From the NCBI GenBank assembly GCA_024679065.1, contig JAGIQG010000011.1:39680001-39744000 (forward strand): DNA of 64,000 bases, in the 5' to 3' direction. This DNA is from Sphyrna mokarran. Its lineage: Eukaryota. Position numbers and translations under genes: made by a program. The notes under the pieces are model-generated. The model ran no database searches. It worked only from the letters and a program-made list of their open reading frames with translations, and was not told the origin of the DNA. Every line of letters starts with the position of its first letter. Position 1 is the stretch's first letter. Shown here one piece after another: positions 5,192 to 26,400 of this stretch.

Positions 5192-8100
5192 CAAACTTTT
5201 CCCTAGTCATCATTTTCAGCTATGAAGTCGAAGACTTGTTGTTTCAACCACTTCTTCAAGATAGCTTCAAATTTTTTTAAAAAATTGTATTTAAGTAGTA
5301 CCTCTCAGAGACATTTCAGAGTGTTTCACAGGCAATGAATTATTCTGACATATGGCAATCACAATTTTGCAGGCAAGAATGATAGCCATTTTTCACAAAA
5401 ACAGGGGCCGGGATTCTCCAACCTCACCCACGGCTGGGCTTCTTTGGTCCCGCTGCAGTGAATGGAGATTTAGCTGAGTGCCAAATTCTTTCTTCTCATT
5501 GGCAGCAGTGGCAGGATAGCAATACAAGATCAGAGAATTACAGCCAAGATCTCATCAACGGCAATGACACTTTGAATGAATACCTTAACAGCGCTTCAGC
5601 TTAACATCTTAAATTATCAAATTGGCATCTCAAACAATCCAGCACTGAGTTAATATTCCACTGAAGTTGCATCCCTAATCTGATGTTCAAGTCCTGGAGT
5701 GGAGCTGAATCCTACAAATTTTTGGTACCAAGGAATGAAACTGAACTGATACTGTATTGGTAGAAAGTACAAATAATTTCTTGTCAGTAATTGTTAGATT
5801 ATTTAAGATGCTGATATATTAGAACTGCTTCCCCAATTGTTTGTTGATGAGGGGGATTTTAACCAGTTGCCTGCAGTCATGAAAGATTGGGAAGCTTCTA
5901 GCTAACAATGCTTCCTTGGAAAATTGGCATAGGTATGTTTTAAAGATACATGTAGGTTTTTAACAAAGGTTCACATTCCTGCATTAACATTGTTTTAATG
6001 CCTTTTTTTTAATAGTGCCACCAAAGATTATCATGCCTGAATTCATAACAATCAAAGCCGGGCAGAAGCTTAGAATTGAAGCTCATGTAGCTGGCAAGCC
6101 TACACCAGTTTGCAAATGGATGAAAGGAGATGATGTCGTAATGCCATCCAGTCGCCTGGTTGTACATAAGACAAAGGATACTTCAGTACTTATCATTAAA
6201 GATGTTACCAGAAAAGATAGTGGCTACTACAATCTTTCTGCAGAAAATAGCTCCGGCATCGCCACCCAGAAAATACGTGTGGTGATAATGGGTGTGTATA
6301 TTTGATGCTTTGTGTAATCATAGAATCATAGAAAATTTACACATAGAAGGAGGCCACTTGGCCCATCGCTTTTTTTCCAGCTAAAAAGAAGCCATCCTGT
6401 AATCCCACTTTCCAACATTTGGCCCATAGCCCTGAAGATTACAGCACTTGAGATGTATATCTAGGCACTTTTTATATGAGTTGAGAGTCTCTGTCTGTTC
6501 TATCTTTTGACATAATGAGTTCCAGACCCTATAATCCTCTGGGTGAAAAGCTATTTCTTCACTGCCCCAATCATTTTAAATTTATGTCACCTGCTTACTG
6601 TCCTCGCTGGAAAATCCCTTTCCATCAACTCCATCTAGGCCCCTCTCAATTTTATACAGCTCAATAAAATCTCCCTTCAGACTCTTGCATTCCAAGGAGA
6701 AGAACCTCCGCCTATTCAGTCTTTCCTCATAGCTAGAATTTTCCAGTCCTGGCAATGTCCTCATAAATTCCCCCTGTACCCTCTCTAGTGCATCTATATC
6801 CTTTCTCTAATGCAGTGACCAGAACTGCACACACTAATCAAATTGTGACCTAAGTAATGTTTCATGTAGTTTCAGTTTAACCTCCCTACTGTTATATGCT
6901 GTGCCTCAGCTAATAAGCAAAAGAATTCTATGCGCCCTCTTAGCCATTTTACCAACCTGTTCTGCTACCTTCAGGGATTTGGAGACATGCAGTCATTATC
7001 TTGCATTCCTTCTACACCTTCCAGTGTCCTCCTATTAATTGTGTACTACTTTGCCATGTTTCACCTTTCCAAGTGCATCCCCTCAAGCTTCTCTGGATTG
7101 AATTCCATTTGTGGAGATGCCAGCATTGGACTAGGGTAAACACAGTAACAAGTCTGATGAAACACAGTAAGAAGTCCAGGTCACCAAACCCGGTGTTGTC
7201 AGACTTTTTATTGAATTCCATTTGCCACTTTTTTGCCCATTGACCAATCCAACAATATCTTCCTGCAGTCTCCAGCAATCCTCCTCACAACAAACCAAAC
7301 AGCCAATTTTTATCAACTGTGAACCTCCCCTACACTTACATCAAATCATTAATATATACCACAAAAAGCAGGAGACCTAATTCTGAGCCTTGGGGAACCC
7401 CACTGGAAGCAGCCTTCACACCCTTCCTGCCACAAATCGAATTTTATATCCAACTTGCTACACCCCTTGGATCACATGGGCTTTTTTTTTAACCAGTCTT
7501 CCATGTAGGACCTTGTCAAAAGCCTTTCTAAAATCTATCTAGGCCACATCAGTTGCACCATTCTGACCAATCCTCCTTGGTACCTCCTCAGAAAATTCAA
7601 TCAAATTAATCACAAACATGATCTTCCCTTAACAAATCCATGTTTACTATCCTTGATTAATCTACACCTTTTGAAGTGACAGTTTATCCTGCCCTTCAGA
7701 ATTGGTTCCAAGGCTCAAAATGACTAGCCTATAATTATTTTGTCTAACCTTCACTCCCTTTTTAAGCAAAGATACAGTAGTAGACCCCTCACTCTCCTGT
7801 GTCTCTTCTGTATCCAGTGAGGATTGGAAAATGACAGAGCCTCCACAATGTCCTCCCTGATTTCTTTTAACAGCACGAGGTACATTTTGTCTGGTTCTGA
7901 TGAATTATCCACTTTCAAAGATGCTAATGCTCTAATGTTTCCTCTGTCCTAAGGTTATGTAAGGTTGTGCACTTGAACGAATTAGAGCTGTGTAAATAGT
8001 ATTCCATTAATACTGCTCTGTAAAGCAGCATTATTTCATCGTTTCATTCTGAACACTTAATGTTTTTCAGATATTCCTGGACCACCACAGCCACCATTTG

Positions 8101-11429: not shown

Positions 11430-14400
11430 ACTACCATCACCACCACCATGTGGTAGGTTCCTGGTGGCAAAGTGGACGCACCATGTAAAAGTCTGTAGAA
11501 TGTGGCATCAGCACCTATTGACTCACCACAGGGAAACCCGCCATAGAGAGGCTGAAATATCCTGGATAGCTGAAGATCATCTCAAACTAGCACCAGACGT
11601 GCATGCCTTGGCATGCTGTAAGTGTCCTTATGTTCTTCAACTGACCCTTAAGAATGTAGTTTGAGTCAGATAATGCCATAGTGTAGTATGATGCCCTTTT
11701 TCTAATGGGATAGGGCTTACAGAATCAGATCTTTCTTTATCATAATGGAAATGAGGACATATTCAAGAGTTGTAAAGTTAGATGGGAATTTTGTGAATAG
11801 GTTTTTTTTTGTAAGTTTAAGGCTATTTTTGTGCAATTTGTTATATTTTAATTAAGTAAAAACATAATTTTACAGGTATGTAATTAGGTAGATGAAGCAA
11901 ATTTTGCATGAATACAATTGGCATTTTTTGTGACTGAACTAAATGACAGTGTAGAGGTAGCATAGGACATTATTAGTTCCTGGAATAATGGTTCTGGAAT
12001 CTGATTGACCAGATGGGTTGAAGTGAAAAGGTTCTCAGGGATATAGCTAAAGCAGTGATGGCCTCAAGTTCTGTAATCTGTTCGGTAGAATTAATTTGAT
12101 AACAGAGAAACATATCTTAATACATGTGGGAGATTTTTAATAATGAAGATTGAATTGTGTGCCTTTTTTCTGAACAGTTCCCCCTGAAGCAGATCTTGAT
12201 GCTGACTTAAGGAAGGTGCTTGTATTGCGTGCTGGTGTCACAATGAGAATCTATGTGCCAGTGAGAGGCCGGCCTCCACCAAAGATTAGTTGGGCTAAAA
12301 TGAATGCCAACTTACAGGATAGACAAGGACTTGATATCAAAACTTCAGACTATGACACAATGTTGTACTGCGAAAATGTGAATCGATACGATGCTGGAAA
12401 GTACATCTTAACTTTACAAAATAGCAGTGGAACAAAAGCATACACTCTTACTGTAAAGGTTCTTGGTAAGTTGTTACAAATTATTTTGTTGTCATAAAAA
12501 ATAAAATATTAATATAAAGTGAGTTGATTATATTTAATTTGTTCAGTGAGACAACCATTTACCTTTTTCTTTACTTTTTAATTAGATACTCCTGGTCCTC
12601 CAGTTAATCTTATAGTTAAAGAAACATCAAAGGATTATGCTGTTATATCATGGGATCCTCCTCTCGTGGATGGTGGCAGTCCAGTTAAAAATTACATAGT
12701 AGAGAAACGAGATGCTGAAAGAAAGGCATGGTCAACTGTAGCAACTGAGTGTTCCAAGACAAGTTTCAGAATTACTAAATTGGAAGAGGGTAAATATTAT
12801 TACTTCAGGGTTCTAGCTGAAAATGAGTATGGCATTGGTGAACCTTGTGAGACGAAAGATGCAGTGAAGGCTTCAGGTAAGGATTAAACACATTGACTAC
12901 TTTTCACGAATTTAATACTGGACAAAAAAAACTGCATATTATAATTTTTTCCTCTTAAACAATCTATTGCATTATATAGAAGAGCCTGGGCCTGTGGAAG
13001 ACTTAAAGGTTGCAGCTGTGTCCAAGAGTTCTTGCACTCTGACATGGAATAAACCAATCAGTGATGGTGGAACACGAATTACTGCTTATGCTGTTGATGT
13101 AATGGTTCAAGAGGACAAGTGGAAAGAGTTGATGAGAGCTAAGAAGTTGCAATTTTCAACAAATGACCTGGAGGAAGGAAAAGAATACACTTTCAGAGTA
13201 AGGGCACAGAATGATGCTGGATTCAGTGTGCCACGTGAAATTACACTTGTAGCAAAGGATCAAGTTGGTGAGTAAGCCCCTTTTGGCATTTGTAGTTTAT
13301 CTTTGAATAATTAGAAGTTCAAATGCAAGTTTGAATTGATGAATGTAAAATAACTAATATTTGGTTTTGTTAATTAACTAGACCTTTTTGGACACATTAG
13401 CAAGTCTCAGAAACTTCTAAGATGTTTTGCAGTGAATAAATTACTTTTAAAATTTAACTACTGTTTATATAGGCAAGGTTATGATAAAGCTGTATGAAAG
13501 CTTTTATTGGTAGGGGGATTGAATTTAGGAGCCGCAGCATCATGTTGCAGCTGTACAAAACTCTAGTGCGGCCGCACTTGGAGTATTGTGTGCAGTTCTG
13601 GTCGCCACATTATAAGAAAGATGTGGAGGCATTGGAGAGGGTACAGAGGAGGTTTACTAGGATGTTGCCTGGTATGGAGGGCAGGTCCTATGAAGAGAGG
13701 TTGAAGGATTTGAGGTTGTTTTCGTTAGAAAGGAGGCGGCTAAGGGGGGATCTTATTGAAGCATATAAGATAATTAGAGGTTTGGATAGGGTGGACAGTG
13801 ATAGCCTTTTTCCTAGGATGGAGAAAGCTAGCACGAGGGGACACAACTTTAAATTAAGGGGTATGAGTTATAGGACGGATATCAGAGGTAGGTTCTTTAC
13901 TCAAAGAGTGATTAGGGAGTGGAATGCCCTGCCTGCAGCTGTTGTAGATGCGCCAAGTTTGGTGGCGTTTAAGAGGTTAGTTGATAAGTATATGGATGAG
14001 AAGGGAATGGTTTAGTTAGGAGGGGCATTGCTTTTTATTTTGGTCGGCACAACATCGAAGGCCGAAGGGCCTGTTCTGTGCTGTATTGTTCTATGTTCTA
14101 TGTTAAACACAGAGTACTGTGCAGCTCTGGTCACCATACTGTAGGAAGGATGTGATAATACTAAAAAGGGTGGAGAGGAGATTCACCAGGATGTTGCCTG
14201 GGCTGAAGTATTTCAGAAGTGAAGGAAGGCTGGTGGTTAGGCTCAGGTTTTTTTTCCTTAGAACAAAGAAGGATGAAGTGGAACCTGATCAGAGAATACA
14301 AAACTAAGGAACATAAATAAGGTAAATCAGAAGAAACTTTTCCCCTTAGTCAAGAGGGCAATTACCATAGGCCTTAAATTTAAGGTAAGGGGCAAGAGAT

Positions 14401-17400
14401 TTGATAGGGATTTAAGGGAAAACTTTTTCACCCAGACAGTGGAACTCGTTGCCTGAAAGTGTGGTAGAGGTGGAAACCTTCATGATACGTAAGGAGTATT
14501 TAGATGATCATTTAAAACGCTGTAGCATTCAAGACTATAGACTAAGTGCTGGAAAAAGGGATTTTAATAGATAGTGCTTTATGGCTGATGCAAATCAGTA
14601 GTGCCAAAGTGCCTCCATCTGTTCTGCGGACTTGTATGACTCTAAGGTCATAGGGAGGTAGAGATATATAGATACACTGTGCTGAGTGGCAGACAGGGTG
14701 GTAAGGTCCCAGCTGGATAAAATGGAATGGTGGTATGGTGAAAGGGTGGGAGATTGACATAGTAGTAAGGCAGCAGGTTGGGTAGGTGGTGAGGCCTAGG
14801 GGGAGTCGAATGGTCAGGAGATTAGTTGGAGGGTCAGGGAAAATCAGAGAGTAAGTGGAGTTAGAGGACTAGGGAAGTTGAAGGCTCGAGAGGAGTCAGT
14901 GAATCAGAGGTGAATTAGAGAGTTGTGTGGGAGTTGATGGTTGGGGAGAGCTGAAGGGTCAGGGGAGTCAGGTGGTCAGTGTGGAGGAGTGTGGAGTGTC
15001 AGAGGATTGGGAGACTCAGAGGACCAGGAGCAAACTAGAGGATTGCAGCGTGTTGGAGAGTCAGGGTGAATCAGATGATCAGGGGCTTCTATCAGCTAGT
15101 GGAGGGGAATTCAGAGCGTAGGAATGAATTGGAGGGTCACAGATGAATATAAAGATCAGAATATATTGGATGGTCAGCAGTGTGTCAGAGAGACAGGGTT
15201 TATTCAGAGGGTTAGAAGTTTAACGGGGGATCATGAGGAATTTGGGAAGTTCGGGTCAGAGAAAGTACGGAGGTATTGAAAGGTCATGGGATATGGGAGT
15301 CAGGTGAGTCAGTATGAGTGATTATGTATAGTTACTCTGGAGTTTGAACTGTTTTCTTTCTGTTTGACATTTCCTGAGTAACAGATAAATAATCAAAATT
15401 ATCCAATCTCTCTTACTCCAGACGGTTTGGATTCGAGAATTGCCCAGTGTAAATCCAAACTTCCTGGAGAATCCCCACAGTCAGTGCATTGGGACATCTG
15501 ATGGGTCCCAATACGTATTATAAATGTTGGATAGGACCATCCAGAATTTCTGGCCCTATACATGCATTGCAGAAGGATTTAATTTAGCTTTACACAAAGA
15601 ATTATTAGAAAAATGAAACTTTGTGTTTAGATATTTGACAGGCAACCAAATTGAAGGCCTGAATTTTGCTGTCCCCCAGGAGATGTATTGGAAGGCATGG
15701 ATTGGGTAAAATCATGGGGAGCTGTGTATGATTAATTCCCTGATGTATTCGCAATATTGGGGCATTTTACCAACAATGGACTGAGGCAGTCTGTTCACTC
15801 TAAGTTCCAGAGTTAAAAGCCCAATTCACTGCATTTGGCATTTTATCTAAGGCAGTTGACTCCCACTTCCTGAGACTGCCAGATAATTTGAGGCTCTTCC
15901 CCACAAAGTGAGCAAAACATGGAAGGCAGACTCTGTAGCCAAAACAACCTCCCCAGAGCGCTGTCCCTCCAGCACGCATTCCTTCCACAATTTAAAAATT
16001 TGGCTTTACCTACCTGCCATGGCATTTGCCTGACGAAGACACAGAGTGTCGGAAGCTCGCAAATTTACTATCAAATAAATCGGTTGGATTTAAAATTGGT
16101 GTTGCTAGATTCTTACTGAGTTCTTACTACCCCAGTCCAACGCCGGCATCTCTACATCATCCCAGGTCCCAAGGCAGCTTCAGTAGAGAGTGCCACTCCG
16201 AATAGTGCTGCTAAACCGTTGGCCCTCTAATTGAGTGGCAGCTCATGAGGGTATGTCACCAGCATTAATAGGATGGCAGCTCATAAAATGCAGGAGGAAG
16301 TTCCATCAGTCACTCGTGCATGGTAGTGACACACATTTCCACCCGACATCAGGAACTCCACATTGCCCACCAAATTCTGGTCAATGTATTTAAAATGATA
16401 AATGGATTCAGTACAGTAGATTAAGAAAAGTTATTTTCTCTGATGGAAGAATCCACCAGAGAGATGGCAAGTGATTAGCACTGCTGCCTCATGGCACCAG
16501 GGACTCAGGTTCAACCCGGTCTCGGGTCACTGTCTATGTGGAGTTTGCACATTTTTCCCGTGTCTGCATGGGCTTCTTCTGGGTCTCAGATTTCTCCTGT
16601 CAGTTCAATGATGTGCGGCTAAGGTTGATTGGCCATGCTAAATTGACCCTAGTGATAGGGGATTAGCAGGGTAAATATATGGGCAATAAGGCCTGGGTGG
16701 GATTGTGATCAGTGGTTTGATGGCCAAATGATACCTGCATGGTAGGGATTCTATAAAACAAGAGTCACAATCTCAAAATTAGACCTGGATCATTTCTATG
16801 TTTGGAGGTGAAGTATAGAATTTCTAGGTTTGTAGGTGAAGTATAGAATTCCCTTCCCCTCAAAAGTTTGTGGATACTGAGACCACTGAAATTTTCAAAA
16901 CATCAACAGATTGTTGTTAGGTCAGGTTATAGGGTTTTGGCTTGAAGATGGATAGATTGAGTTGAAGCTAAGATCTGATCCAATGATGCAATGTTGCCAA
17001 AAGACTGAATGACCTATTGCTGATCTCATTATAGGACATAGCTAGTCTTTTCATCTTCAATTCTAACATTCCAAGTATAAATAAACTACATTTATATTAC
17101 ATTAAAATTGGCACAAACCAAGTGCACAATTTGCACAGTAGTTATAATAGCTACTTCAATTAGACAATGATCATTAAATAATCTCTTTGAAATTGGTTAG
17201 CCATTATATGTCACCTATGGTAAAGTACTTTATGTCAATTGTTAAGTTAAACTGTGTACCATCTTGAGGCCTCGCTCATAATAAGACATTGCAAACTATT
17301 ATTTAAACGACACAATGGTTTTAAAGTACACTTGTCAAAACTGAAAATTAAACTTATTAAACTTTTTTTGCCTCAACAGTACCACCAAATCTTGACTTAG

Positions 17401-20400
17401 GAGATTTCCCTGACCTAACATACATTGCCAAGGAGGGAACTACTGCCCGTATAAAGATTCCAATCAGTGGCAAACCTGTACCAAAAGTAACATGGAAGAA
17501 AGGTGAAGATGTGCTTCAGGAAACTGGAAGAATATCTGTGGAATCCACAGCAATTAGTACAATTCTCACAGTGCGAGATTGTCAAAAGAGTGATGCTGGA
17601 AAATATACAATCAACTTGAAGAATGTTGGTGGCACTAAAGAAGCTGCACTGTACATGAAAGTAGTTGGAAAACCTGGAATACCAACTGCACCTTTCCGTT
17701 TTGATGAAGTAACAGCAGATGCAATCACTTTAATCTGGGCACCTCCCAAGGATGATGGCGGTGCAGAAATCACTAACTATATTTTAGAAAAGCGAGATAA
17801 TGTCACCAATAAATGGGTGACAAGCGCATCTGCTGTACAAAAAATATCGTTCAGAATCACAAGGCTTCATGAAGGAAATGAGTATGTGTTTAGAGTCAGT
17901 GCTGAGAATAAATATGGAGTGGGAGAAGGTCTGAAATCTGACCCTGTGATAGCCAAGCACCCATTTGGTAAGCATCTTTTGCATTCTGCAACTAAACTTT
18001 AATTACAGTGCTACATTCAATTTGAAACTGAATGTTGTTTCTCTTTTTCCCTTCCTCAAGACGTGCCTGATGCTCCTTTGCCACCAGAGATAGTTGCAGT
18101 TAGACATGATTCTGTCTCCCTGACTTGGAAGGATCCAAAGAGAACTGGTGGCTCACCAATCACAGGTACAAAATCTAAGTTCTCTTTTTTGGCCAGTAGT
18201 TAAATTTATATAACTGCACAACATTTATTTGAAACTACTTTTTTGCACCAGGTTATCACGTTGAATATAAAGAAAGAAACAGCCTCCTTTGGAAGAGAGC
18301 AAATAAGGCTGTACTGAAAATGAAGGATCTTAGAGTGCCAGGCTTGACTGAAGGTCTTGAATATGAATTTAGAGTAATGGCAATTAACTTGGCTGGTGTG
18401 GGCAAACCTAGTGGACCATCACATCCTGTTACTACACTTGATCCAATTGGTACGTGAAATCCTTTGCACAGTTTTCCATTTCTTATTATTGTGCATTATA
18501 AATGACAAAATCAGTGCCTGACATAAAATGCTTTTATTTTCAGATCCTCCTGGAAAACCTGAAGTCATTAATGTTACCCGAACATCTGTGACCCTAATCT
18601 GGACTGAGCCCAAGTACGATGGTGGTCACAAACTAACTGGCTACATTGTTGAGAAACGTGATCTGCCTTCAAAGACATGGATGAAAGCAAATCATGTAAA
18701 CGTTCAAGAATGTGCTTTCACTGTTACTGATCTTACTGAGGGCTGTAAATATGAATTCCGTATAAGGGCAAAGAATGCAGCAGGAGCAATTAGTCCACCA
18801 TCTGAAACTACAGGAACCATTATCTGCCAAGACGAATATGGTGTGTAATTTTCTTTTGTTTAACCACATGATAAAAATAAAAAAGAGAAAAAAAAATCTA
18901 ATTCACTTTTTTCTTTTATACCCGCAGTGGCACCAACAATTATAATTGATCCGACCATCAAAGAAGGCTTAACAGTTAGAGCTGGTGATACTATTGTAAT
19001 TACTGCTACTAGTATTCTTGGCAAACCTCCACCAACATCAGTATGGTCTAAAGGTGGAAAAGACTTCAAAGTCTCTGAGATTGTTCAAATTGATCAAACT
19101 CCAACTTCCTCGACACTGTCTGTTAAATATGCTACGAGGAAAGATTCTGGTGAATACACAATCACTGCCAGTAATCCATTCGGCACCAAAGAAGAAAATG
19201 TGCGTGTGAAAGTGTTGGATGTCCCTGGTCCTCCAGGACCTATTGAAATAAGCAATGTTTCATCTGAGAAGGTCACACTTAATTGGTTACCACCAATAGA
19301 AGATGGAGGTTCTCCAGTTAAATCTTACACAATTGAAAAGAGAGAAACTAGTCGCCTTCTCTGGACTTTAGTTGCCGAAGATGTTCCAACCTGCAGATAT
19401 GTTGCAAGCAAACTTATACAGGGAAATGAATATATCTTCCGTGTCTCTGCCGTAAATCAGTATGGAACTGGTGATCCAGTGCAGGCAGAACCAGTTAAGA
19501 TGGTGGATAGTTTTGGTAATCACAGTCTTTTTTTAAATACTGATTAAAATAATAATGATTTAAAATGATATTACTTTTGTACATGGGTCTGATAGAAATA
19601 TAAACTTAATTTATGCTATCCCTCTTTCAGGTCCTCCTGGCCCACCTACAAAGCCTGAGGTTACCAATGTTACCAAAAATACTGTTACTGTTGGCTGGAA
19701 GAGGCCAGCCGATGATGGTGGTAGTGAAATCACAGGATACATTGTGGAACGTAAAGAAAGGAAAGGCCTGAGGTGGATTAGAGCAACGAAGAAACCCATA
19801 TCAGATCTCCGACATAAAGTAACAGGACTCAATGAAGGAACTGAATATGAATTCCGTGTCAGTGCAGAAAACAAGGCAGGCATTGGACCACCAAGTGATC
19901 CATCACTACCAGTACTAACAAAAGATGTAGCATGTAAGTATTAACATTGCACTATACCTTTCTCATTTTTGTGTTGGGTACATTATTCTGTGAAAATAAA
20001 CATACTTACTTGTATGTAATTGCATCATTTTCTTCCAATTTATACAGATGTACCTGGACCACCTTCGAACCCAAGAGTGGTTGATACAACGAAGAATACT
20101 GCTAGCTTGACTTGGGGAAAGCCCCACTATGATGGTGGCCTTGATATTATTGGCTATATTGTCGAACACAAGAAAGAAGGAGATGAGAACTGGGTAAAAG
20201 ACACAACAGGCACCGCACTCAGAATAACTGAATTTGTTGTTGCTAATCTTCAGCCAGGAGAAAAATACCGCTTCAGAATTAGTGCTGTCAATGCAGAAGG
20301 AGTTGGTGAGCCTGCACAAGTTGAAGATGTTATTGAAATTAAGGAACGTGAAGCAGCACCTGATTTTGAATTAGATGCTGAACTGAGAAGAACTCTTGTT

Positions 20401-23400
20401 GTCAGAGCTGGAGTGGCCATTCGTATTTTTGTACCAATCAAGGGACGTCCAACTCCTGATGTCACATGGTTCAAAGAAGACATCCCAGTTAAGGGTCGTG
20501 CAACTGTAGAAAACACAGATTCATATACATTCCTGCTTATCCCAGACTGCACAAGATATGATGCTGGAAAGTACACAATGTGCCTTGAAAATGTTGCTGG
20601 TAAAAAGAGTGGCTTTGTAAATGTGAGAGTCTTGGATTCACCAGGTCCACCCATAAATCTCCGAGCCAGAGAAGTAACAAAAGACAGCGTTACAATACAG
20701 TGGGATATGCCAATGATTGATGGTGGTTCACGGATAACCAATTACATTGTAGAAAAACGAGAATCAACTCGGAAGGCATACTCTACTGTCACAACCAATT
20801 GCCAGAAATGTTCACTCAGAGTTGTCAATTTGGCAGAAGGATGTGAGTACTTCTTCAGGGTAATGGCAGAGAATGAATATGGCATAGGTGAACCAGCTGA
20901 GACTACAGATCCTATAAGAGCATCTGAAGCCCCATCACCTCCAGAACGTCTGCACATTATGGATATAACAAAGCATACTGTTAGCCTAGCTTGGCCAAAA
21001 CCAGAACATGATGGTGGTAGCAAGATTACAGGATATGTGCTTGAGGCACAGAAGAAAGATTCTGAAAAATGGGTATCTTTGGCAACTGTGAAGACACTGG
21101 ATTATATTGCAAAGAATCTTACTGAAAATGAAGAATACACATTCCAAGTAATGGCAGTAAACGCTGCTGGGAGAAGTGATCCACGAGAAAGCAGACCAGT
21201 TATTGTTAAGGAACAAACAATGCTTCCAGAATTTGATCTACGTGGCATATACCAGAAACTTGTGATTGCAAAGGCAGGTGATAATATCAAAGTTGATATC
21301 CCTGTCCTTGGTCGACCAAAACCAACAGTCACCTGGAAGAAGGATAACCAGCCTTTGAAGCAGACCCAGAGGATAAATATTGAAAATACAGCAAACTCCA
21401 CCATACTTAACATCATTGAATGCGTACGAAATGATAGTGGCAAGTTTACATTAACAGCTAAAAATATACTTGGTGAAGTAAGTGACATCATCACAGTTCA
21501 GGTTCATGACATTCCTGGACCTCCAAAAGGGCCAATTAAATTTGATGAAGTTTCATCTGATTATGTATTGCTATCATGGGAACCTCCAGAAAATGATGGA
21601 GGAGTGCCATTGAGCAATTATGTTGTAGAAATGCGTGAGACCAACAGTACTACATGGGTAGAACTAGCAGCTACTGTAATACGTACAACATTTAAAGCTC
21701 CTCACCTTACCACTGGAACTGAATATCAATTCCGAGTTAAGGCTCAGAACAGATATGGTACAGGTCCTGCAATCTCTTCAGAGGCTGTTGTTGCAGCATA
21801 TCCATTTAAGGTGCCTGGACCTCCTGGAACTCCACAAGTTATTGCTGTTAGTAAGGATTCAATGACTATCACCTGGAATGACCCTGTTTCTGATGGTGGA
21901 AGTCCCATTTTTGGATACCACATTGAAAGAAAGGAAAGAAATAGTATACTTTGGCAAACTGTTAGTAAGTCTTTGGTTGTAGGCACCACCTTTAAATCAA
22001 CTGGACTTACTGATGGCATTGCATACGAATTCCGTGTTGTAGCTGAAAACATGGCTGGTAAAGGTAAACCAAGTAAGCCATCAGAACCTGTATATGCATT
22101 GGACCCGATAGATCCTCCTGGTAAACCAGTTCCACTCAACATTACTAGAAACTCTGTAACACTCTCCTGGACAAAACCTGAATACGATGGAGGCTTTAAG
22201 ATAACTGGTTACACAGTTGAAAAAAGGGATCTGCCTAATGGTCGCTGGCTTAAGGCAAACTTCAGCAATGTGATCGAGACTTCATTTACTGTTAGTGGTC
22301 TTAATGAAGGCGACACATATGAGTTCCGCATAGTAGCTCGTAATGCTGCTGGTTCAGTAAGCAAACCATCTGAGCCTACTGATGCCATTATATGCAAAGA
22401 TGATATTGAAGAACCCAGAATAATGGTTGATGCTAAGTTCAAGAGCATTTTACTATTGAAAGCTGGTGAAACGTTTAAACTTGAAGCAGATGTTAAAGGG
22501 CAACCTCCACCAACAATGGTTTGGACTAAAGAAGACATTGAACTTGAAGAAACAGGGAAACTAGAAATAAAGATGACAGATTTCTCCACTGTTCTAACAC
22601 ACAAAGAGAGTGTAAGAAGAGATGGTGGTGCTTACACACTTACTGCATCCAATCCTGGAGGAACAGCGAAACATGTTTTTAACGTCAAGATTTTGGATAG
22701 ACCTGGGCCTCCTGAAGGACCAATAGTAATTTCAGATGTCACAGCAGAAAAATGTGTGATATCCTGGTTGCCTCCACCAGATGATGGTGGTGCCAAGATT
22801 GAACACTATGTCGTTGAAAAACGTGAAACCAGTCGGCTTGCATGGACTAATGTGGCCACGGACGTCCAACTAACCAAATTAAAAATACCCAAACTTCTGA
22901 AAGGAAATGAATACATTTTCCGTGTAATGGCAGTAAACAAATACGGAGTTGGTGAACCTTTAGAATCAGATCCTGTTGTTGCTGCTAATCCATTTGTACC
23001 ACCTAGCCCACCAAAGAATCCTGAAGTTACAGCAATCACAAAAGATTCAATGGTAGTTTGTTGGGGACATCCTGATTCTGATGGTGGAAGTGAAATTACT
23101 AACTACATTATTGAGAGGCGTGACAAGACAGGAATGCGCTGGGTTAAATGTAATAAAAGAACTGTAACTGATCTACGATACAAAGTTGGTAAGCTCACAG
23201 AAGGACATGAATATGAATACAGAATCATGGCTGAAAATGCTGCTGGTGTAAGTCAACCCAGCTCTTCCAGCCCATTCTACAAAGCACTTGACACTGTATT
23301 CAAACCTGGACCACCAGGTAACCCAAGAGTGCTAGATACCAGCAGATCTTCAATCACTATTGCATGGAATAAACCTATCTATGATGGTGGTTCAGAAATT

Positions 23401-26400
23401 ACAGGTTATATGGTTGAAACAAGTCTCCCTGAAGAAGATGAATGGACAGTTGTAACGCCACAGAGTGGACTTAAGGCTACTTCATTCACAATCACTAACC
23501 TAAAAGAAAACCAAGAGTACAAAGTTCGCATATATGCTGTAAATTCTGAAGGCATTGGAGAGCCTGCACAAATTCCTGGAACTGTTAAAGCTGAAGAAAG
23601 GTTATTGCCTCCTGAAATTGAGCTTGATGCAGACTTGCGTAAAGTGGTAACTATAAGAGCTTGCTGTACCTTGAGATTATTTGTTACAATTAGAGGAAGA
23701 CCAACACCTGAGATTAAATGGGCAAGGGAAGATGGGGAGCCCCTAGATAGAGCTTCAATTGAAAATACAAGCTCATATTCCCTCTTAATCATTTCAAATG
23801 TGAATAGATTTGATACTGGCAAATATGTCATAACAGTAGAGAATAGTGGCGGTAGCAAATCTGCTTTTGTTAATGTTAGAGTTCTGGATACTCCAGGAGC
23901 ACCACAGAACCTTAAAATTAAGGAAGTTTCCAAAGACTCTGTTACAATTAATTGGGAGCCTCCAATCATTGACGGTGGTTCAAAGATTAAGAATTACATC
24001 GTGGAGAAAAGAGAATCAACACGGAAAGCTTACTCTACAGTGATTGCCAATTGTCATAAGACAAGCTGGAAGGTGGATCACTTGCAAGAAGGCTGCAACT
24101 ATTATTTCCGTGTTTTAGCTGAAAATGAATATGGAATAGGCCTTCCTGTTGAAACACCTGATTCAGTTAAAGCATCAGAGAGGCCACTACCACCTGGCAA
24201 AGTAACTCTTGTAGATGTGACAAGAAATAGTGCAGTTTTGTCATGGGAGAAACCAGAGCATGACGGAGGCAGTAGAATTTTAGGATATATCGTGGAAATG
24301 CAAAGTAAGGGCAGTGAAAAGTGGACAACGTGTACTACAGTGAAAATAACTGAAGCCACCATAACAGGATTGACACAAGGTGAAGAGTATATGTTCCGAG
24401 TGTCAGCACAAAATGAAAAAGGTGTCAGTGATCCCCGACAACTGGGCGTTCCTGTTATTGCAAAAGACCTTGTGATTGTTCCTACTTTAAAGCTTCTGTT
24501 TACCACATTCAGTGTGCTAGCAGGAGAAGACCTAAAAGTTGATGTACCATTTATTGCATGCCCTAAACCAACTATATCTTGGATGAAAGATGGTCAGCCA
24601 TTAAAACAAACGACAAGGATTAATGCTGACAGCAAAGACAATAAAGCAGTTTTGGTGATTAAGGAGGCCTGCCGTGAAGATGTTGGCCAATACAATATAA
24701 AGCTTACAAATACTGCCGGGGAAGTATCTGAAAATCTTAGCATTGTTGTGTTAGACAAGCCTGGGCCTCCAACTGGACCAGTCAAAATTGAAGAGGTCAC
24801 TGCAGACAGTATTGTCGTATCATGGCAACCACCAGAATATGATGGGGGCTGTCAAATCAATAATTACATCGTTGAGAAAAGAGATACTTCAACCACTGCT
24901 TGGCAGATTGTTTCTGCTACTGTTGCCCGAACAACTATCAAAGCTGTACGTTTAAAGACTGGTACCGAATATCAATTCAGGATTGCAGCTGAGAATCGAT
25001 ATGGAAAGAGCAGTTATCTTGTTTCTGAATCAGTTGTGGCACAATATCCTTACAAGGCCCCTGGTCCACCTGGTACCCCTTTCATAACAAGTGTTACAAA
25101 GGATAGCATGGTGGTGCAATGGAATGAACCTGTCAATGATGGTGGCAGTAGGATCCTGGGTTACCATCTTGAACGTAAAGAAAGAAACAGCATTTTATGG
25201 GTCAAGCTGAACAAGACAATTATTACTGACACAAAATTAAAGACCTCAAATCTTGAGGAGGGCATTGAATATGAATATAGAGTGTATGCTGAGAATATTG
25301 TTGGCATTGGCAAACCTAGCAAAGTATCTGAATGTGTAGCGGCTAGAGATCCTTGTGATCCACCAGGTCGTCCTGAAGCTATAATTGTCACTAGAAATTC
25401 AGTGACACTGCAGTGGACCAAGCCTGAATATGATGGAGGCAGCAAAATCACTGGCTACATTGTTGAAAAGAAAGAACTTCCTGATGGCCGTTGGATGAAA
25501 GCCAGCTTTACTAATGTCATTGATACTCAGTTTGCTGTCACTGGCTTGGTAGAAGACCAGAGATATGAATTCAGGGTAATTGCTAGAAATGCAGCTGGTG
25601 TATTCAGTGAACCATCTGAATCCACTGGTCCAATTACTGTTAGAGATGAGGTAGAACCACCTCGAATAAGCATGGATCCGCAATATAAGGAAGGTATTGT
25701 AGTACATGCAGGCGAATTATTTAAAATTGAAGCTGATGTTCATGGAAAACCAATACCTGAAATCCAATGGATGAAAGGAGACCAAGAACTTGAAAACACA
25801 GCTAGGCTTGAAATGAAAAATACAGATTTTAACACAATTTTGACTGTCAAGGAAACAATTCGTGTCGATAGTGGCCACTATACCCTTTTGGTAAAGAACG
25901 TAGCTGGTCAAAAGTCTGCTACTGTTAATGTGAAGGTACTAGACAGACCTGGACCACCTGAGGCACCAATTATTATAACTGGAGTAGGTGCTGAAAAATG
26001 TACATTAACTTGGAAGCCTCCAAAACAAGATGGCGGTAGTGATGTTTCACATTACATTGTTGAAAGAAGAGAAACTAGTCGTTTGGTCTGGACACTCGTT
26101 GAGTCTAATGTGCAGACGACAAGTTGCAAAGTTACCAAGCTTCTGGAAGGAAATGAGTATATCTTCCGTGTTATGGGTGTAAACAAATATGGTGTAGGCG
26201 AGGCACTTGAATCTGATCCAGTAATAGCAAAGAATCCATTTGTACGTCCAGATCCACCAAAGGCACCTGAGGTCACTACTATCACAAAGGATTCCATGAT
26301 TGTTGTATGGGGAAGACCTGCATCTGATGGTGGCAGTGAAATTCAGGGTTACATTTTGGAAAAACGAGACAAGGAAGGTATCAGGTGGACAAGGTGTAAC

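Follow-up and report, generated by a model that had tools for sequence, protein, structure and literature searches.

The titin intron and the hammerhead motif

Annotation of the 64-kb stretch of DNA analysed here (the window) identified the host gene as titin, which is the best PDB match, with Ig/Fn3 exons on the + strand. The motif lies within a titin intron of 4112 bases (13268..17379, +) that begins with GT, ends with AG, and whose flanking exons join in frame. Contigs of two sequencing runs, which we guess to be RNA, end at 13267, the exon side of the intron start; run contigs were compared over 12900-16450, a stretch that stops short of the next exon at 17380. The giant A-band exon (20048..37191, +) is five exons downstream of the motif-bearing intron, with its acceptor at 20048 and with 37191 marking the end of the open frame. 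Other repeats in this intron, at 13490-14210 and 14800-15310, comprise two LINE-like fragments and a purine-rich degenerate repeat, the LINE-like fragments forming a direct repeat (D4) and having very high contig depth.

The hammerhead motif comprises 41 bases at 16024-16064 on the + strand, and thus has the sense orientation within titin that the initial annotation had assigned to it. The 5' strand of stem I, ATTTGC (16024..16029), is followed by the core segment C3-A9, CTGACGA (CUGACGA in RNA; 16030..16036), an extra A (16037) and the stem II hairpin GACAC-AGA-GTGTC (16038..16050). The second core segment, G12-A15.1 (16051..16058), consists of GGAA (16051-54), GC and TC (16057-58) and includes the change A13G at 16052; the palindrome AGCT at 16054-57 represents the vestigial stem III, C17 is at 16058 with the expected cut site directly 3' of it, and the 3' strand of stem I, GCAAAT, occupies 16059..16064. 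The earlier description of stems, core, extra A and GGAA therefore agrees with the sequence letter by letter, and so does the minimal type-I architecture with its palindrome and extra A, the latter being present in 75 of 81 parsed relatives.

Both stems are present in the predicted fold of the 41-mer and both covary among relatives (see below). Stem II has pair probabilities of 0.89-0.98 in three contexts, while that of stem I is about 0.9 in the 41-mer and is predicted to fall to 0.45 and 0.05 when flanking sequence is included. The predicted energy of -10.1 kcal/mol (z -1.16) is equalled by 23 of 200 shuffles, so that stability of the fold alone is unremarkable. A descriptor of the core with at most one mismatch plus stems I and II found this site and no other on both strands of the window, and had no match on either strand of 150 simulated 64-kb sequences (19.2 Mb) at strict or relaxed stem lengths; the motif is thus not a product of chance. 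The plain pattern CTGANGA..GAAA was uninformative, with five matches in the window against 6.5 expected. In the search with hammerhead models that had been suggested as a check, the Rfam hammerhead families gave no match at E<=10 within 14000-18000.

The parent element and its copies

The motif and the sequence that follows it (16022..16160, +) correspond to the 5'-truncated end of a Penelope-like element, consisting of hammerhead and tail, with 94-99% identity to dispersed copies. This assignment follows from the longer copies, in which the sequence runs on upstream into an endonuclease frame and the tail continues into the ATG of the element's open reading frame (ORF); the titin copy ends at the A and T of that start codon (16159-60). 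A search of the shark's own genome with 15990-16185 returned 950 first-look candidates, of which 40 were scored, with 94-99% identity over the same 140 bases. Exact patterns identified 1518 copies still attached to upstream element sequence and 88 that start at the edge of stem I like the titin copy. A non-LTR retrozyme, made of noncoding tandem monomers, was rejected as the source, the titin copy being single and the hammerhead of the family being joined to a coding element in these 1518 exact matches.

In five long copies that were fetched, the parent frame encodes a reverse transcriptase (RT; PF00078, E 1e-10) and a GIY-YIG endonuclease (E 3e-4) in one frame; the domain scan covered two frames, with RVT_1 above the cut-off in one and GIY-YIG just under the Pfam cut-off in both. 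In one locus (L067) a 3.4-kb unit is flanked on either side by the same repeat, and the hammerhead thus lies in the terminal repeat of an element with RT and GIY-YIG domains. The Penelope origin proposed by the initial annotation is supported by the dispersed copies, the upstream endonuclease frame and the two domains of the long copies. A CX2-5CXXC linker between RT and endonuclease defines the Neptune/Nematis type of EN+ Penelope-like elements (PMC8557442), and the CX4CXXC linker CHSNLCKTC that precedes the endonuclease in L065 and L067-L069 points to a parent of this type.

Regarding known systems, the motif resembles the minimal hammerheads of metazoan Penelope-like elements as described in the available text of Cervera and De la Pena (2014; PMC4209133) in having no true stem III, palindromic positions 15.2-16.2, an extra base between 9 and 10.1, the pair G10.1-C11.1 and a terminal-repeat location, and most copies there are likewise solitary and truncated; the titin copy differs in carrying A13G and in coming from a shark genome, sharks being unnamed in that text. 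The element also shares features with the Poseidon element PAc of Anolis carolinensis (Frangieh et al., 2024; PMC11167929), namely an RT and GIY-YIG frame, a hammerhead in the terminal repeat and copy ends at two positions that delimit a tail of 30-40 bases, together with an insertion reaction that in vitro is independent of hammerhead cleavage. In contrast to PAc, whose ORF begins at stem II and whose reverse transcription starts 111-118 bases into the ORF (PMC11167929), here about 100 bases separate the cut site from the ORF downstream of it, and long copies terminate at the start codon; the CX4CXXC linker of the parent is a further difference. Our literature search, mainly of the main texts of open-access articles, found no report of a titin intronic ribozyme or of Penelope hammerheads in sharks. 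The titin-intron motif is, as judged from its sequence, a further case of the minimal hammerhead that Cervera and De la Pena (2014) reported from Penelope-like elements, and one young copy of a large family.

Several features of the copies bear on how they were inserted. Inverted double insertions were present in all eight fetched pairs, which had been chosen for being opposed; in L112-L119 the usual arrangement is one arm that includes the whole tail and a second that stops about 35 bases short of this point, and these two arm ends match the two start points given for the Anolis element (PMC11167929). Flanking duplications measure 49 bases in L002, 14 in L009, 11 in L025 and 12 in L028, several of them starting inside the last bases of the tail; such widely differing lengths and starting points suggest priming through short homology with the target. 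In another subfamily, seen in six of 20 fetched copies (L120, L122, L133, L134, L137 and L139), stem II is shorter and the 3' strand of stem I has become a T run, with only two stem I pairs left. Other titin introns contain two stubs from a related Penelope family that are older and decayed, at 51070-51190 (+) and 7110-7175 (-); the former has a 12-base flanking duplication, and both stem I and part of its core are missing.

Regarding the age of the titin insertion, one contig from the run of a relative matches 14425-16017 and, after six intervening letters, continues at 16160; it therefore lacks the insertion (16018-16159). This absence, seen in one contig of one run, and the near-identity to sister copies argue for a recent event and against a conserved role, and the insertion is probably young and not conserved. 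The same contig led us to reject a domesticated hammerhead, which would be shared between species at this intronic site. Intronic hammerheads of amniotes such as that of RECK share the type-I architecture, the intronic location and the retroelement origin, but are described in the available account as canonical and conserved across amniotes (PMC6155905), whereas the titin copy is minimal, mutated and absent from the orthologous intron of the relative. A CAT repeat at 16018..16020 and 16158-16160 (+) is an uncertain candidate for a 3-base target duplication or microhomology, and no target-site duplication longer than 3 bases was found at the titin insertion.

Covariation of the stems and changes in the core

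For the covariation analysis, 127 of 141 tail anchors in the loci yielded parsable motifs, and the 81 from loci picked by ORF or tail, and not by the motif, were used; each place was represented once, so that L031, the A13G query copy, was dropped in favour of L004, and a few rows show evident parsing errors. Pairing was scored in 80 distinct relatives: 319 of 400 cells pair in stem II, against 255.8 +/- 6.1 in shuffles, and 373 of 480 in stem I, against 342.8 +/- 5.0, none of 2000 shuffles reaching the observed value for either stem. In 25 hand-picked rows 87% of cells are paired, compared with 27-46% when slid, and both partners are altered in seven of 11 pairs, which is not significant alone (5.8 in shuffles, 132 of 500 as high). 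The initial annotation had predicted covarying stems and a conserved core, taking their absence as a refutation; the stems do covary, and A13 is present in 81 of 81 parsed relatives, in a parse that anchors on the core and from which the A13G query copy was dropped. These patterns argue that the fold has been under selection in the history of the element, and since the rows are related they represent a few compensated changes between families and not many independent events.

The family carries the core CUGANGA...GAAA...UH, from which the titin copy departs with GGAA. Compared with the intact sister L002, the titin copy shows one difference in 139 bases, which is A13G at 16052. Exact copies in the genome number 288 for the intact sequence, four for A13G, three for a control A>G change in the loop and one for the control A14G, in agreement with the earlier claim that GAAA is the family state and G16052 the single core change. 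With four A13G copies against three and one for the controls, A13G is at background level and looks like ordinary drift; separate origins or one minor source would both account for the four copies.

Mutagenesis of hammerheads is a further ground for expecting A13G to cause loss of activity. A13 belongs to the consensus of the core, where changes are reported usually to result in drastic loss (PMC3088659); our literature search, mainly of the main texts of open-access articles, found no published measurement of a cleavage rate for A13G. The claim that this change disables the ribozyme would hold for the titin copy in the role of the cutting half, while the dimer geometry suggests that it does not extend to the role of the half being cut: A13G would remove the catalytic half and leave a cleavable one.

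It has to be considered whether an intact insertion was harmful and A13G was selected because it shields titin pre-mRNA from cleavage. The lone change in 139 bases does hit a core position, for which we estimate a chance probability of about 8% (11 of 139 sites), and the copy lies in sense orientation within a gene that is essential; of the five descriptor matches around titin, three are antisense, a number too small to mean much. However, three further exact A13G copies exist elsewhere and the control A>G changes occur at a like rate, an intact motif on its own would not be expected to cut and would leave little to select against, and the titin copy's own cut site in a dimer stays unprotected by A13G, all of which makes selection very unlikely.

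A second core variant, G8A, keeps C3 unchanged and so has an uncompensated C3-A8 mismatch. It is represented by at least 853 exact copies genome-wide, whereas the mirror CpG change C7U has 37, and this imbalance (853 CA, 37 TG) indicates that G8A spread as a subfamily and led us to reject CpG decay as its source. Examples are L112-L114 and L044-L048, and some copies of the subfamily keep long coding frames; each of the three opposed A8 pairs that were fetched carries A8 in its two arms, one of these pairs with a 696-residue open frame, and a fourth pair is mixed. A downstream marker accompanies A8 in 27 of 28 rows compared with five of 20 G8 rows (p 2e-7, in a sample biased to the subfamily of the window). 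G8A was rejected as the majority form, with 39 A8 against 61 G8 among the first 100 of 1518 matches (hand count) and with other variants of stem II in 20 G8 copies that were fetched. A8 is enriched among stubs that start at stem I (55 of 88; p 0.002, hand counts), which the age of the subfamily could explain too. In the Anolis element a different mutation of this base, G8C, is reported to abolish cleavage (PMC11167929). These counts suggest that the G8A subfamily may have spread without a working hammerhead.

Expected cleavage and consequences for titin

In the parent element, the geometry of the motif suggests that cleavage after C17 would occur only as a pair, each core serving the cut site of the other copy, probably with the assistance of the element's protein. 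The titin copy would have arisen by reverse transcription that began at the tail beside the start codon of the element and went no further than the 5' edge of stem I, so that the copy is 140 bases long. Standing alone, with A13G in its core and with a stem I predicted to form poorly in the titin context, this copy would bring about no meaningful cleavage of titin RNA, and its likeliest fate would be to remain uncut and be spliced out with the intron.

The initial annotation had further claimed that nascent titin RNA would be cleaved if the motif were active, for which we found no support. Among Penelope hammerheads, single minimal motifs are reported to show no detectable cleavage and dimers little (PMC4209133), and for the Anolis element it is reported that its hammerhead cut only together with its own protein, that killing the hammerhead left insertion unaffected, and that public RNA data were without RNA ends at the cut site (PMC11167929). 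By analogy, cleavage would not be expected of a lone minimal hammerhead even if it were repaired. Moreover, a descriptor scan, which required a core of the GAAAGCT type and read 10-kb pieces separately, detected no intact sense partner in the titin coding span. In the 464 kb around titin the descriptor has five matches, two of them on the + strand, namely the titin-intron copy and one intact copy.

The latter, at L172:3490-3620 (G000:C113:39403492), has an intact core and an endonuclease remnant and lies about 27 kb upstream of the titin Z2 exon, between Ig-type exons that precede the first domains of titin. It probably belongs to the neighbouring upstream gene, outside the titin transcript; we take this neighbour to be CCDC141-like.

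The titin copy might still serve as a substrate, if the RNA of an intact sister paired with AGCU and the 3' strand of stem I and cut after 16058 in trans, perhaps aided by the protein. The substrate half AGCTC-GCAAAT is unchanged, the 288 exact intact copies are possible suppliers of the core, and protein-assisted cleavage is reported for the Anolis element (PMC11167929). Against this stand an interaction of only 6+4 intermolecular pairs, with a trans complex predicted to be 4.7 kcal/mol less stable than two monomers, the missing cis partner in the titin coding span and the lack of RNA ends at the cut site in the Anolis data cited above. Nor is there an excess of genomic 5' ends at the cut site: of 12 pattern hits about two resemble genomic copies that start there on unrelated DNA, the remaining hits being inversion junctions, a duplication or decayed copies. 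Cutting in trans is extremely unlikely on these grounds; if it did take place, sister RNA and protein would cut nascent titin RNA 4 kb upstream of the giant exon, and a transposon RNA would act as a sequence-specific nuclease on a host gene via its own scattered stubs.

Splicing offers another route by which the insertion could affect titin, through a cryptic acceptor in the tail (CCCCAG, 16130-35) that together with a donor at 16250 would define a frameshifting exon of 115 bases. The context of this AG is retained in both families examined and the donor, at 7.1 bits, is close to the median of called titin donors, but the acceptor reaches 1.1 bits, under all 50 called titin acceptors (lowest 2.9), and ranks 41st of 368 AGs in the intron, on a matrix built from automatically called sites picked for good scores and hence favouring real sites. 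The likelihood of such an exon is close to negligible.

Thus, the motif is very probably the hammerhead-bearing end of a recently inserted Penelope-like retrotransposon and most likely a non-cutting passenger that is removed with the intron. The biological weight given to it for titin by the initial annotation was most likely overstated, the copy being an inert passenger and not a titin switch, and the insertion is most likely without consequence for titin. The family provides a clean, young example of a published motif, and if the C3-A8 variant is inactive, its copies would be natural evidence that hammerhead cleavage is dispensable for the spread of Penelope elements, in agreement with what was found in vitro for the Anolis element.
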